From assembly GCF_018129005.1 (NCBI RefSeq), contig NZ_JAAEDL010000002.1:77897-141896 (forward strand): a DNA stretch of 64,000 nt, given 5' to 3'. The notes under the pieces are model-generated. The model did no database searches and had not been told where the DNA came from. It worked only from the letters and a program-made list of their open reading frames with translations. Within the stretch, counting starts at the first letter, position 1; every line of letters starts with the position of its first letter. Made by a program: the position numbers and the translations under genes. Source of the stretch: Neoroseomonas eburnea (GTDB lineage Bacteria; Pseudomonadota; Alphaproteobacteria; Acetobacterales; Acetobacteraceae). Positions 39,589-47,760 of this stretch are shown here, piece after piece.

Positions 39589-42500
39589 TCACGCTGCCCA
39601 CGACGCGGACAGCGCCTCTGCCTGCTGAAGCACCGTCTGGACGGCAGCATCCTGCAGGTCCGGTGGGTAGCCGTACTTCCGAAGGATCCGCTTCACGAGC
39701 ACGCGGATGCGCGCCCTGGCAGCCTCCCGATGGACCCAATCCACAGAGACGCTGCCGCGGATACTCTTCACCAGTTCATGCGCGATCACCCGCAGGGCGG
39801 GCTCGCCCATCACGTCTCGCGCGCTCTCGTTCTCCGCCAGCGCGTCATAGAAAGCGATCTCCTCGTCGGTGAGGCCGGTCTCCTCGCCGCGCGCCCGCGC
39901 CGCCCGGATGTCCTTCGCGATCTGGATCAGTTCCTCCAGCACCTGCGCCGTCGTCAGCGCATTGGCGTGGTAGCGGGCGATCGCTGCCTCGAGGCGTTCT
40001 GTGAAGGCCTTCGACTGGGTCACATTGCGCTGAGCCTGCGAACGCACCTCACCGGCGATCAGCTTCTTCAGAGCTTCGATCGCCAGGTTGCGCTTCTCCA
40101 TCTGCCGGACCTCGGCCAGGAACTCGTCCGATAGGATCGAGATATCGGGGCTCTCAAGACCAGCAGCCCGCATGATGTCGATGATCTCGGTCGAGACCAC
40201 CGCCCGGCTGACGATCTGCTGGATCGCCAACTCCCGGTCCGCAGTGCTGCGGCCGCCGCCCGCGATGCTCTTCACCAATGCGGCCCGGATCGCCTGGAAG
40301 AACCCGACTTCCTCGCGGACCTCCCGCGCCAGGTCGCTGGCCGCCGCAAGCGCGAAGGCCTTCGACAGCGCCAGCACGGCATCGGCATACCGCCGGTGTG
40401 CCCGCTTCTTCCCCTCCTCTGACGCCTCCCGGGCGGCCTCCTCCTGCTGAAGGGTCAGGATCCAGTCGATCGCCCCAGCCATGATCGCCAGGCGCTGCCC
40501 CGGCGGCGTCTCGGCGGTCAGCGCAGGCCGGTAGTCAAACCCACCCGCCATCTCCGGCCGGAACATAGCGCGGACGATTTCGTAGCGCTCCTGCAGGACG
40601 CGGACCGCCTCCGCTTCATCGATGCCGGTCTGCTCCTGATCCCGCCCGGAGTACTGACCCAACGCGCTCTTCAGGTTCTGGGCGATGCCGATGTAATCCA
40701 CGACCAGGCCGGCAGGCTTGTCGCGGAACACCCGGTTCACCCGGGCAATGGCCTGCATCAACCCGTGGCCCTTCATGGGCTTGTCCACATACATCGTGTG
40801 CATGCAGGGGGCGTCGAAGCCGGTGAGCCACATGTCGCGCACGATCACCAGCTTGAGCGGGTCCTTGGGATCCTTTGCCCGCTTGGCCAGCAGCTCGCGC
40901 CGCGCCTTCGGCCGCTTCCCGATATGCGGTTGCCAGGCCGGCGGATCGGAAGCCGCGCCCGTCATCACCACCTTGATGGCGCCGGCTTCGTCCTCGTCGC
41001 TGCGCCAGTCGGGGCGGAGCCTGACGATCGCGTCATGGAGCGCCACGCAGATGCGGCGGCTCATGCAGACGACCATCGCCTTGCCGTCCAGCGCCGCGAT
41101 CCGGTCCTCGAAGTGCCGGACCAGGTCCTCGGCGACCAGAGCCAGCCGCTTCTCCGAGCCGACCAGGGCCTCGACGCTCGCCCAGCGGCGCTTCAGCCGC
41201 TCCTGCTCGCTCTCGGCCTCGTCCTCGGTGAGTTCCGCAATCTCGGCATCGATCTTTGGTTTCTCGTCCTCGTCGAGTTCGATCCGCGCCAGCCGGCTCT
41301 CGTAGTAGATTGGCACCGTGGCGCCGTCCTCAACCGCGCGGCTGATGTCGTAGACATCGATGTAGCTGCCGAACACGGCCGGCGTGTTGACGTCCTCCTT
41401 CTCGATCGGCGTCCCCGTGAAGCCGATGAAGGAGGCATTGGGCAGCGCGTCGCGAAGGTACTTCGCGAAGCCGTAGGAGATGTCGCCCGTCGCGCGCGCC
41501 ACCTTCGCGCGGAACCCATACTGGCTGCGATGCGCCTCGTCGGCGATCACCACCACGTTCCGGCGGTCGGTCAGCACCGGGTATTCGGCGCTGCCGGGCT
41601 CGGGGGCGAATTTCTGCAACGTGGTGAAGATCACCCCGCCAGATGGACGATCCAACAGCCGCCGCAGTTCTTCTCGATCGGTCGCCTGCTGCGGCGTCTG
41701 GCGTAGCAGGTCGCGGCACATGCTGAAGGTGCCAAACAACTGGTCGTCGAGGTCGTTGCGGTCCGTCAGTACGACCAGCGTCGGGTTCTCCATCGCCGGA
41801 TGCTTAATGATCTGCCCGGCGTAGAACGCCATCAGCAGGCTCTTGCCCGAGCCCTGCGTGTGCCAGATGACACCGGCTTTACGGTCCCCCTCGGGGCCAG
41901 TCGCCGCCAGCGTGCGCGCCACCGCGTGGCGCACAGCGTGGAACTGGTGATAGCCGGCGAGTATCTTCACCACCTTCCCGTCGGCATCGCCGAACACAAG
42001 GAAGTCCTTCACCAGGTCCAGGAAGCGGCGCTTCTCGAACACGCCCTTCAGCACCGTCTCGAGTTCCGGGCTGCCCTTCGGCGCCAGGTCCTCCCCGGTC
42101 ACGGTGCGCCAGGGCATGAAGCGTTCCCGGTCCGCGGTCAGGGAACCGATCCGCGCTTCCAGCCCGTCCGACACCACCAGCACGGCGTTGTTGCGAAACA
42201 GCGAGGGGATCTGCGCCTTGTAGGTCTGCAACTGGTTGAAGGCGCCGTCGAGCGTAGCGTTCTCGTCCCCCGGCTTCTTCAGCTCCAGGACACCGAGCGG
42301 CAGGCCATTCACATAGACCACGACGTCGGCGCGGCGGTTGGCCTTGTTTTCGATGACGGTAACCTGGTTCACCGCCAGCCAGTCATTCGCGTCCGGGTCC
42401 TCGAAGTCGAGCAGCCTGGCCTGCTCGCCGCCGATCGTGTCATCCGCCCGGCGCACCTCAACGGGAACGCCCTCGACGAGGTAGCGGTGCAGGCGGCGGT

Positions 42501-42756
42501 TCTCGTCGATCAGGGAAGGCGTCTCGGCCCGCAGCAGCTTCACAAGCACCGCCGCCCGCGCTTCCTCGGGCAGGGTCGGGTTCAGTCGGGCGATGGCGGC
42601 CTGGAGGCGCCCGACCAACACCACATCGCCATAGGCCGCGCGTTCCGGCCGGGCGCCATCCGGGCCAATCTCCAGGCCGGAGACGACGGTGAATCCAAGC
42701 TCGGCTAACCAGGCGAGCGCCGCTTCCTCGACATGGCTTTCGGCAAGCACGCTCAT
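39589..42756 (-). CDS. hsdR: Type I restriction enzyme R subunit (HsdR)
   Basis: The N-terminus is [27 protein letters not shown] (canonical HsdR start). The SF2 motor has motifs HTQGSGKSL and DEAH-like [12 protein letters not shown] 42756 follows a GAGAGG SD; an alternative GTG start lies at 42870. Confidence 0.9.
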
Positions 42757-45926: not shown

Positions 45927-47760
45927 GGCGCAAGCCCGCAAGCGCTGCGCGGATCGTTGTGGCCAGGCGCTCAGCCGCTGCGAATTGAGTCTCCAGAGTC
46001 GATTGCAGAGCGGAAAAGCGATCTTCGAATGGAGCGTCATCATCCTCTACGTCGGCGGCCCCGACATAACGCCCTGGCGTCAGCACATGGTTGTGCGCGC
46101 GGATCTCCTCCAGCGTCGCCGCCTTGCAGAACCCGGGCACATCCGCATAGGCGCCAGCGTCCGTCTCGCCGCGCCACGCGTGGTAGGTATCGGCGATGCG
46201 CGCGATGTCCGCGTCCGACAACTCGCGCCGCGTCCGGTCCACCAGCGCGCCCATCTTCCGCGCATCGATGAACAGCACCTCGCCGCGCCGGTCGCGCCAG
46301 CCGCCACCGGGGTTCTTGTTCCTCGCCAGGAACCACAGGCAGGCTGGGATCTGCGTCGAGTAGAAGAGCTGCCCGGGCAAAGCCACCATGCAGTCTACCG
46401 CGTCCGCCTCGACCATCGCGCGGCGGATCACATCCTCCCCGCTCTGGCCCGACGACATGGAGCCATTGGCCAGCACCACGCCCGCCGTCCCGTTCGGCGC
46501 CAGATGCCACCAGATGTGCTGCAGCCAGCCATAATTGGCATTGCCCACCGGCGGCACGCCGAACACCCAGCGCGCATCCTCCCGCACCCGGTCCCCGCCC
46601 CAGTCGGAGACGTTGAAGGGCGGGTTCGCCAGGATGAAGTCGAAGCGAAGGTCCTTCAGCTCGTCCTTGTGGAAGCTGCCCTCGTTGTTCCAGCGGATGT
46701 CGGCGTCGATGCCGCGCACCGCGAGGTTCATCTTCGCCAGGCGCCAGGTGGTGTAGTTGCTCTCCTGCCCGTAGATGGCGATGTCGCCGATGCGCCCGCC
46801 ATGCTCGGCGACGAACTTCTCCGACTGCACGAACATCCCGCCCGAGCCGCAGCAGGGGTCGTAGACGCGGCCCTTGTAGGGCTCCAGCATCTCGACCAGC
46901 ACGCGCACGACGGAGCGCGGGGTGTAGAACTCGCCGCCGCGCTTGCCTTCCGATCCGGCGAAACCGCCGAGGAAGTACTCGTACACCCGGCCGAGCAGGT
47001 CCTTCGCGGTGTCGCCCGGTTCGCCGGTGGCGATGCCGGAGATCAGGTCGATCAGCTCGCCCAGCATGACCTTGTCGAGGGCAGGCCGGTTGTAGTCCTT
47101 CGGCAGCACACCCTTGAGGCCGGCGTTGTGCGCCTCGATCGCCGCCATGGCGTCGTCGATGATCTTGCCGATGCTGGGCTGGCGCGCGCTGGCCTGCAGG
47201 TGCGACCAGCGGGCGTCCTTTGGCACCCAGAAGACGTTCTCGGCCAGGTATTCGTCGGGATCCTCAGCGGCGGTGGGGTCCTCGGCCAGCAGCGCCTCGC
47301 GCTTCGCCTCGAAGGCCAGCGAGATATGCTTGAGGAAGATCAGGCCGAGCGCGACGTGCTTGTAGTCGGAGGGTTCGAGGTTCTTCCGCAGCTTGTCGGC
47401 GGCGAGGAAGAGCTGCGCCTCGAAGCCGAGGGTGGCCCCGTTACCGTTGCCGCGCTTGGGGGCAGGCTTGGCGGGCTGCGCGGCGGGAGCGGGCGTGGGT
47501 GTCGTGGTCTGCGTCAGAAGGTCTGGCTGACGCGGCGTCGTGGCCGGAGCGGCCGGCTTGCCGACCAGCCCCGTGAGGGCGACCGATCCACCCCTGCCAC
47601 GGCCTGCGATGATGGTACCGTCCTCGATCAGGGCTGCGTGGACGTTCCAGTAGGTGTCGTCCTGCCAGCCCAAAGTATCGCGCAGGCGGCCATTGCCGGC
47701 ACTGCCGCCGAGCTCTTTCAGGGACTCGATGAAGCGTTCACGTAGGACTTCGCGGACCAT
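45916..47760 (-). CDS. hsdM: Type I restriction-modification DNA methyltransferase subunit (HsdM) with an extra N-terminal domain of about 100 aa
   Basis: The N6-adenine MTase motifs are NPPF (ILANPPFN) and motif [13 protein letters not shown]. The HsdM N-terminal helical domain is [31 protein letters not shown]. It is preceded by [32 protein letters not shown]...GSVALTG and a Pro/Thr-rich linker. Confidence 0.9.

Follow-up and report, generated by a model that had tools for sequence, protein, structure and literature searches.

The window analyzed here, a stretch of 64,000 nucleotides from Neoroseomonas eburnea, contains a five-gene type I restriction-modification (R-M) operon next to the 3′ end of a tRNA-Arg(CCT) gene (39216-39292, plus strand), which was located by ARAGORN, scores 66.6 bits against the Rfam tRNA model, and would form the junction between the chromosome and the mobile element discussed below. 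The five genes are codirectional on the minus strand, and open reading frames (ORFs) and domain matches agree on their assignment as hsdM (47760-45916, 614 aa; Pfam and PADLOC), hsdS for the specificity subunit (45926-44643, 427 aa; Pfam Methylase_S and full-length PADLOC Specificity_I), an ABC ATPase gene of the AAA_15/AAA_21 type matching HEC-01A (44646-43447, 399 aa; Pfam and PADLOC), a DUF4276 gene matching HEC-01B, whose product is predicted to be an OLD-like Toprim nuclease (43447/43450-42836, 203-204 aa; Pfam and PADLOC), and hsdR (42756-39589, 1055 aa), which encodes a nuclease domain, an SF2 motor, and a T1RH-like C-terminal domain. An earlier annotation of this DNA (hereafter, the original prediction) had recognized the same five genes and placed them about 290 bp from the tRNA 3′ end, in agreement with the 296 nt that we count between the tRNA and the hsdR stop codon, and had regarded them as a horizontally acquired defense island with no integrase adjacent. 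As described in the following sections, a serine-integrase module and a prophage lie directly beside it.

Organization and composition of the operon

Reading of the gene junctions base by base placed the hsdS ATG at 45926 and the hsdM TGA at 45918-45916, which corresponds to an 11-nt overlap, and located an ATGA at 44646-44643, by which hsdS and the ATPase gene overlap by 4 nt. The ATPase and DUF4276 genes share the sequence GTGATG at 43450-43445 and overlap by 4 nt if GTG is the start codon or by 1 nt if ATG is. All three overlaps had been proposed before; the count of four overlapping junctions out of five had not been correct, because five genes have four junctions and three of them overlap. 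At the remaining junction, the TGA of the DUF4276 gene ends at 42836, and hsdR could begin either at ATG 42756, after a gap of 79 nt (not 80 nt, as first given), or at GTG 42870, with a 35-nt overlap. The gap is most likely correct, because the HSDR_N and PADLOC REase_I models start at residues 42-44 of the long hsdR ORF and because the genes called independently in a public contig of identical sequence (L166, Logan SRR10985188) are the same, with a 1055-aa HsdR starting from the ATG; the GTG start was thus rejected. A gap also precedes hsdR in homologous operons and varies there between 16 and 79 nt. The overlaps argue for cotranslation of hsdM, hsdS, and the ATPase and DUF4276 genes, but hsdR lies beyond the gap, and the stoichiometric coexpression put forward in the original prediction is no more than a possibility. 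Folding of the 79-nt gap (z -1.7) and of the hsdR 3′ region (z -0.9) gave no significant structure, and the gap contains no consensus signal; a scan of 39200-48400 for promoter and terminator consensus sequences found no promoters, with terminator counts at chance level.

The GC content of the block between the tRNA and the integrase module (39293-47980) is 66.3%, with a third-position value (GC3) of 0.85. The statement that it lies below that of the flanking core is valid on the left side, where the core (1-39215) has 72.2% (GC3 0.92), but not on the right, where the flank is prophage DNA with 69.5% rather than core.

Type I restriction-modification genes

HsdM matches HsdM_N (PF12161, 2e-22) and N6_Mtase (PF02384, 4e-105) and has an NPPF motif at residue 379, and it represents a divergent subfamily because its score of 140 falls below the TIGR00497 cutoff of 243. 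The two known domains are preceded by an extra N-terminal domain of ∼63 aa and a Pro/Thr/Ala linker. This N-terminal domain had no match in Pfam, NCBIfam, or PDB sequence searches and is absent from the homologues in loci L161 and L163; the first 63 aa (47572-47760) are 97% identical to those of Roseomonas alba HsdM (L018, 19485-19672) and 62% identical to those in L107, while the rest of the protein is only about 30% to 32% identical to R. alba HsdM. HsdS matches PF01420, has the PADLOC Specificity_I models spanning the whole protein, and contains two target-recognition domains. It diverges far more than HsdM does, with identities of 40% versus 81% in L107 and 29% versus 64% in L161, which looks like the usual reshuffling of target-recognition domains. 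HsdR consists of HSDR_N, SWI2_SNF2/ResIII, T1R_D3-like, and T1RH-like_C domains (Pfam), scores 608 bits with TIGR00348 against a cutoff of 285, and has GSGKS, DEAH, and D...ELK nuclease motifs. Domains, motifs, and the TIGR00348 score thus bear out the earlier view that the operon encodes a type I R-M system into which an ATPase/Toprim-like pair is embedded, and the type I genes, complete and with intact motifs, are predicted to confer both methylation and restriction activity.

The embedded ATPase/Toprim pair

The two genes between hsdS and hsdR encode the PADLOC candidate system HEC-01, which is related to OLD, PARIS, Gabija, and Mad3-Mad4. Residues 7-392 of the ATPase align with positions 2-404 of the 406 in the HEC-01A model (5.1e-156), and residues 4-203 of the DUF4276 protein align with positions 2-200 of the 204 in HEC-01B (2e-68). 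In the ATPase, GPNGSGKST represents Walker A, VSDGT the ABC signature, IGIEEPE Walker B, and TTHS the H-loop; distant relatives of this protein in PDB are PtuA, OLD, and AriA. The DUF4276 protein had no match in a PDB sequence search; the Toprim fold with its conserved Glu and DxD motif was found in it, which supports the "TOPRIM-like" label given earlier and suggests nuclease activity. HEC-01 has been defined as an ABC ATPase and Toprim pair embedded in Hma and other defense systems (Payne et al., 10.1101/2024.01.29.577857), while DUF4276 has been described as a member of the Toprim group and a homologue of Mad4 (PMC12065111) and has been placed together with PARIS in a tree of AAA15/21 ATPases (PMC11464382).

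The genomic contexts of ten close DUF4276 homologues were surveyed. In six cases the position is between hsdS and hsdR, as in the window, and the pair recurs there in unrelated bacteria. A viral contig (L161) and a tyrosine-integrase island of Roseomonas sp. GC11 (L163) contain the exact five-gene operon, in which hsdM and hsdS again overlap by 11 nt and the 4-nt overlaps are also retained, while operons with extra embedded genes (Fic, pAgo, RhuM, toxin-antitoxin, or Schlafen-like) are found in L165, L171, L172, and L174. One homologue is located immediately upstream of hsdM (L173), one in an island beside Wadjet with hsdR on the other strand (L164), and two are alone (L162, in a Zot-type element, and L175). 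The viral copy in L161 adjoins another, distant DUF2924/serine recombinase pair. From these contexts, the five-gene unit is a widespread, horizontally moving arrangement that is not peculiar to this genome, and the existence of two lone pairs means that HEC-01 does not strictly need an R-M system.

The metagenomic homologue in L174 (5798-7920) shows a further peculiarity: its HEC-01 ATPase is split into two ORFs, and a 102-aa HsdR fragment is followed by a Schlafen-like gene and then by a full hsdR. This locus is an example of decay and reinsertion inside such operons.

Integrase module and prophage arm

A gene for a large serine recombinase (integrase) of 443 aa (49624-48293, minus strand) lies 533 bp upstream of hsdM, which overturns the statement that no integrase is adjacent. 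The protein has Resolvase, Recombinase, and Zn_ribbon_recom domains and matches phrog_95 at 5e-105. On one side it is accompanied by a DUF2924 protein (50109-49621, minus strand; Pfam DUF2924, 3e-53), a conserved upstream partner that accompanies the integrase in almost all of 80 viral loci. On the other side, a gene for a 130-aa protein (48296-47904, minus strand) overlaps the integrase stop codon and lies 143 nt upstream of hsdM; it always follows the integrase and is likewise conserved in nearly all of the 80 loci. The 130-aa protein matched no Pfam or NCBIfam family, and is homologous to Gp1 and Gp2 of the Acidithiobacillus phage AcaML1, the latter being called a "recombinase small subunit."

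The module is followed by genes for lysogeny, encoding a YkuD-domain protein (51180-50398, minus strand) and a CI-like HTH/S24 repressor (52384-51221, minus strand), and by early and replication genes on the plus strand (52972-64000), which run off the window and comprise phrog_2480, DUF669, a Cas4-like exonuclease, a helicase, DUF6511, a primase-polymerase/DUF3987 gene, and a gene for a ParB-DNA methyltransferase fusion. With all three integrase domains present and with lysogeny and replication modules adjoining, the right flank of the operon is the left arm of a prophage that uses a large serine integrase. Its closest cultured relative is AcaML1, which has a complete genome and is listed as temperate; the integrases are 54% identical, the trio of DUF2924, integrase, and small gene is the same, and a phrog_2480 homologue is common to both. 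A much closer copy exists in an IMG/VR contig from an unrelated metagenome sample (L081), in which identity to the window is 98% for the integrase and 92-99% for the phage genes, while the integrase of the R. alba locus L018 is 95% identical.

The AcaML1 record (L176/L177, JX507079) begins with CCACCA. McrBC is located, together with several IS elements, at the end of the phage genome that comes to lie beside the integrase module on circularization, so that defense cargo is att-proximal in this member of the integrase lineage as well. The YkuD (L,D-transpeptidase) gene of the window, situated between the DUF2924/integrase genes and the CI-like repressor gene, is an unusual passenger of a lysogeny module and is 97% conserved in L081. 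The last gene of the window (62512-64000, plus strand, open at the window end) encodes a ParB-like N-terminal domain fused to a DNA methyltransferase (phrog_498, 2e-88). Such fusions are typical of the methylases that phages use for self-protection, and the prophage thus has an orphan methylase besides the type I system.

The terminal segment and its junction with the tRNA

Between the tRNA and the operon lies a segment of ∼235 bp (39293-39528) in which homology with L001, L018, and L004 ends at 39525-39528. It includes the motif TCTCTCC-N3-CCT-N4-ACT-N-G-N3-GAT (39425-39452), which has 18 specified bases. All four integrase-bearing pip loci share this motif; it is missing from the 76 others, among which L004 holds a displaced copy with one mismatch, and it always starts 131-132 nt past the tRNA 3′ end. 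The same segment occurs beside tRNA-Glu (L088 and L097) and tRNA-Gly (L129 and L138), with a member of the integrase family 7-9 kb away, and is absent from empty sites. Because the motif tracks the loci with the integrase, keeps a fixed spacing from the tRNA, and is missing where the site is empty, the segment seems to belong to the integrase-bearing element; the operon would then lie between the terminal segment of the element and its integrase module. From the conservation of the segment, we infer that the left att junction is located at the 3′ end of the tRNA.

The segment is treated as noncoding DNA because a minus-strand ORF within it (39309-39650) shows no codon-like conservation in alignment A5. 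When it was examined as RNA, Rfam matched the tRNA only and RNAalifold gave -2.7 kcal/mol with no convincing covariation. Scans of viral contigs for attP or attR forms returned one match to the tRNA-Arg 3′ end and three to the terminal motif, and no excised form of the element was identified among them. In one IMG/VR contig (L169, 2600-3100), the terminal segment occurs together with its motif, with no adjoining tRNA and no integrase within 14.6 kb; this copy could be an excised (attP) form or represent another integration site. The discriminator position of the tRNA (39288), just before CCA, is G in the loci with the terminal segment (the window, L001, L018, and the displaced copy in L004) and A in L002, L005, L007, L008, and the full tRNA of L004, with L006, which has G, as an exception. 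The element may supply the extreme 3′ end of the tRNA, or the discriminator base may only reflect lineage.

Variable cargo in related genomes

The pip gene (38230-39189), which is most similar to that of Neoroseomonas soli (96%), precedes tRNA-Arg in the window as it does in relatives, and the left flank is syntenic in many of them. What follows the tRNA differs. In L002 and L005, the native flank genes come directly after it, so the site is empty, and in L006 another insert of ∼6.9 kb is found. In N. soli (L001), similarity to the window breaks at 39525-39528 and resumes at 47982, the intervening cargo being an MmeI-like enzyme, a DEAD helicase, a T5orf172 protein, and GmrSD. R. alba (L018) has the same left break, resumes at 47573, and carries another type I system, in which a DUF4268/NucS-like gene is embedded. 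In Roseicella (L036) and Paracraurococcus (L057), the integrase module is at the same distance from the tRNA, and the cargo is a type III R-M system with a UvrD-like helicase in the former and DUF5131 with an MFS transporter in the latter. When ten large cargo proteins encoded at eight further integrase loci were compared with known families, every one of them matched a defense family, namely, type III R-M (three times), a DUF499/DUF1156 methylase, DpdF, a type I REase, IetS, and a type II methylase. The original prediction would have been mistaken in proposing horizontal acquisition if all close relatives had shared the same operon with identical flanks; clearly they do not, given the same pip-tRNA-Arg flank with other cargo (L001, L018, and L036) or with none (L002 and L005).

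In R. alba, DNA identity with the window is ∼90% from the tail of the small gene across the intergenic region of 143 nt and through the first 63 hsdM codons, and the breakpoint falls in the Pro/Thr/Ala linker of HsdM, after the small N-terminal domain. This arrangement fits the replacement of a cassette by homologous recombination between shared flanks.

Another kind of element is found at the same tRNA in Roseomonas sp. CAU 1739 (L004, 11051-20077), where 46 nt of the tRNA 3′ end are repeated at the far end of an 8.7-kb tyrosine-integrase/DUF3987 element. The ∼235-bp terminal segment follows this repeat, which implies that the two kinds of element use this tRNA one after the other.

Discussion

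Taking the terminal segment, the integrase module, and the comparison of relatives together, we regard it as quite probable that 39529-47980 is the occupant of a defense-cargo slot of this prophage family. On the explanation that we favor and consider probable as a whole, the operon is the exchangeable defense cargo of a temperate phage-like element with a serine integrase, which has entered the chromosome of a Neoroseomonas/Roseomonas-like member of the Acetobacteraceae at the tRNA-Arg(CCT) 3′ end. The slot would extend from the ∼235-bp terminal segment to the integrase module, composed of DUF2924, the integrase, and the 130-aa gene. Since different defense systems are found in the same slot of related elements, the operon would have been brought in and be swappable by recombination between the shared flanks. 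The apparent puzzle of an island that lacks an integrase disappears with the recognition of the serine-integrase module and prophage that the operon abuts.

Several observations weigh against this explanation or parts of it. The window shows no structural phage genes, and a defective prophage is therefore conceivable. Its other end is situated outside the window, and attR and the exact crossover are thus unseen; a repeat of the tRNA 3′ end that would serve as an att repeat was sought within the window, and none was found. The GC content of the cargo (66.3%) is below that of the prophage (69.5%), from which the cargo would have joined the element more recently or from a foreign source. As for the embedded pair, in four of the ten homologue contexts it is not between hsdS and hsdR, and in two it is entirely alone; any functional coupling with the R-M enzyme would be putative, and no defense by HEC-01 was detected in the assays of Payne et al. 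(10.1101/2024.01.29.577857).

The difference in GC content would also be expected if the operon were an independent tRNA-linked island that stands in tandem with the prophage at the same tRNA and outside the element. That tRNA-Arg(CCT) is a hotspot with multiple users, as exemplified by the tyrosine-integrase element with the 46-nt repeat in L004 and the ∼6.9-kb insert in L006, and that the same operon is found in a tyrosine-integrase island in L163, point in the same direction. There is, however, no second integrase and no tRNA-derived direct repeat flanking the operon, the boundaries of the cargo coincide in three genomes, and the ∼235-bp segment is missing from empty sites but accompanies the serine integrase beside three tRNA species at a fixed spacing. 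A tandem arrangement therefore seems very unlikely to us. Somewhat less remote, although still unlikely, is the idea that the integrase module is a fixed remnant of a defective prophage and that the locus is a chromosomal hotspot whose contents are exchanged by homologous recombination and are not moved by a phage. The lack of structural genes in the window would agree with it, as would the position of the integrase, which is the same, ∼8-10 kb from tRNA-Arg, in Neoroseomonas, R. alba, Roseicella, and Paracraurococcus, and the mosaic inside R. alba hsdM (97% identity over 63 aa, about 30% over the rest) is typical of homologous recombination. A fixed remnant is, however, hard to reconcile with the presence of both occupied and empty sites among close relatives, with related elements at other tRNAs, with the L081 copy (98% for the integrase and 92-99% for the phage genes) from an unrelated metagenome sample, and with the record of the related AcaML1 as a temperate phage with a complete genome. 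The two explanations also overlap, because swapping by homologous recombination is part of both.

The nature of the ATPase/Toprim pair was weighed separately. The pair might be an accessory of this type I lineage, for example, in DNA-end processing or in the control of restriction after transfer, rather than a separate defense. In plain five-gene operons it directly follows hsdS with a 4-nt overlap, six of the ten contexts place it upstream of an HsdR of the T1RH-like_C kind, and the absence of defense by HEC-01 alone in one screen (10.1101/2024.01.29.577857) would be understandable for such an accessory. An accessory role nevertheless appears improbable, since the pair also exists alone or beside other systems (L162, L164, and L175), the related OLD, Gabija, PARIS, and Mad3-4 function as self-contained nuclease systems, and one HEC-01 representative protected Escherichia coli B on its own against at least one phage (10.1101/2024.09.26.614923).

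The expected mode of action of the operon can be outlined from what is known of the families. HsdM and HsdS would form an M2S enzyme that methylates a bipartite target, and the R2M2S complex would translocate and cut unmodified incoming DNA. The ATPase might have a sensing or regulatory role, with the Toprim protein serving as the effector nuclease, which would make the pair a second line of defense. The trigger might be a phage that disables or evades the type I enzyme, by analogy with PrrC/EcoprrI and PARIS/Ocr. That the pair fires when restriction is blocked is a tentative proposal, which we lean against more than toward. If it is prophage cargo, the operon would shield the lysogen from other phages, and we infer that it is carried in virions. 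A still more ambitious combination is that phages of this kind insert precisely at tRNA 3′ ends (Arg-CCT, Glu-TTC, and Gly-GCC), keep a dedicated exchangeable defense slot between the terminal segment and the 130-aa gene, and have in the HEC-01 pair a coevolved guard of one type I lineage that is fired by an anti-restriction protein of a phage; that all of these hold jointly seems rather doubtful.

Among known systems, EcoprrI-PrrC shares the layout of the operon, having hsdM, hsdS, an embedded ATPase/nuclease, and hsdR in one orientation, with an effector that may act when restriction is blocked. PrrC is, however, a single protein in which an ABC ATPase is fused to an anticodon nuclease, whereas two proteins, one of them with a Toprim-fold nuclease, are encoded here. 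The rlo genes of Campylobacter are also embedded in type I R-M systems. In class 1/2 OLD nucleases and in GajA of Gabija, ATPase and Toprim are fused, in contrast to the separate genes with a 1-4-nt overlap found here. HEC-01 itself is the same two-gene module of ABC ATPase and Toprim (DUF4276), co-oriented within a methylation-based defense system; it was first defined inside Hma, while the present pair is inside type I R-M, and type I systems are also known to hold embedded genes (10.1101/2024.01.29.577857).

Membership in two related systems was considered and rejected. PARIS has as its AriB a DUF4435 Toprim protein of ∼300 aa, whereas the partner here is a DUF4276 protein of 204 aa, and AriA models match the ATPase only at residues 190-340, with an E-value of 3e-33 versus 5e-156 for HEC-01A. 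MADS likewise combines a AAA ATPase (Mad3) with a DUF4276 homologue (Mad4) and is methyltransferase-associated, but the surrounding system here is a canonical hsdMSR, the NCBIfam scores are far below the cutoffs (134.5 versus 420 for MAD3 and 45 versus 720 for MAD2), and there are no other mad genes.

Every component described above comes from a described family, and prophage-borne defense hotspots are already a known concept. Temperate phages and satellites of the P2/P4 type reportedly have such defense hotspots (Rousset et al. 2022), and mycobacteriophages are said to carry integrase-proximal cargo (Dedrick et al. 2017). Like the hotspots of P2/P4, mycobacteriophages, and AcaML1, the element in the window has variable anti-phage cargo at a fixed att-proximal position between conserved phage genes. 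It differs from the phage and satellite hotspots in belonging to another phage lineage, in having a serine rather than a tyrosine integrase, and in its tRNA 3′-end junction and ∼235-bp terminal segment; a literature search for this particular hotspot found no description of it. The 3′ ends of tRNAs are an unusual class of target for serine integrases, and a serine-integrase element joined precisely to them, with a conserved terminal segment and a mosaic N-terminal domain of HsdM, is somewhat unusual.

None of these findings overturns the current understanding. Their value lies in part in a corrected annotation, in which an orphan island becomes phage-borne cargo and the embedded pair receives the name HEC-01 and a predictable nuclease fold. 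They also offer a natural comparison of four Acetobacteraceae genera that have the same flanks with different cargo, together with an empty site, in which the refilling of prophage defense slots can be followed, and a compact five-gene construct suited to asking whether HEC-01 backs up the type I enzyme.

A minor observation concerns the tRNA gene. In three loci, tRNA-Arg(CCT) is split at the anticodon loop by an insert of ∼230-260 nt (L058, 14067-14361; L066, 11038-11345; L071, 9373-9667), whereas that of the window is uninterrupted. The insert in L066 gave a full-length match to the Rfam group I intron model with 31.5 bits, which is below the gathering score, and an E-value of 2.7e-6. We presume that the insert is the tRNA-Arg(CCU) group I intron known from alphaproteobacteria.

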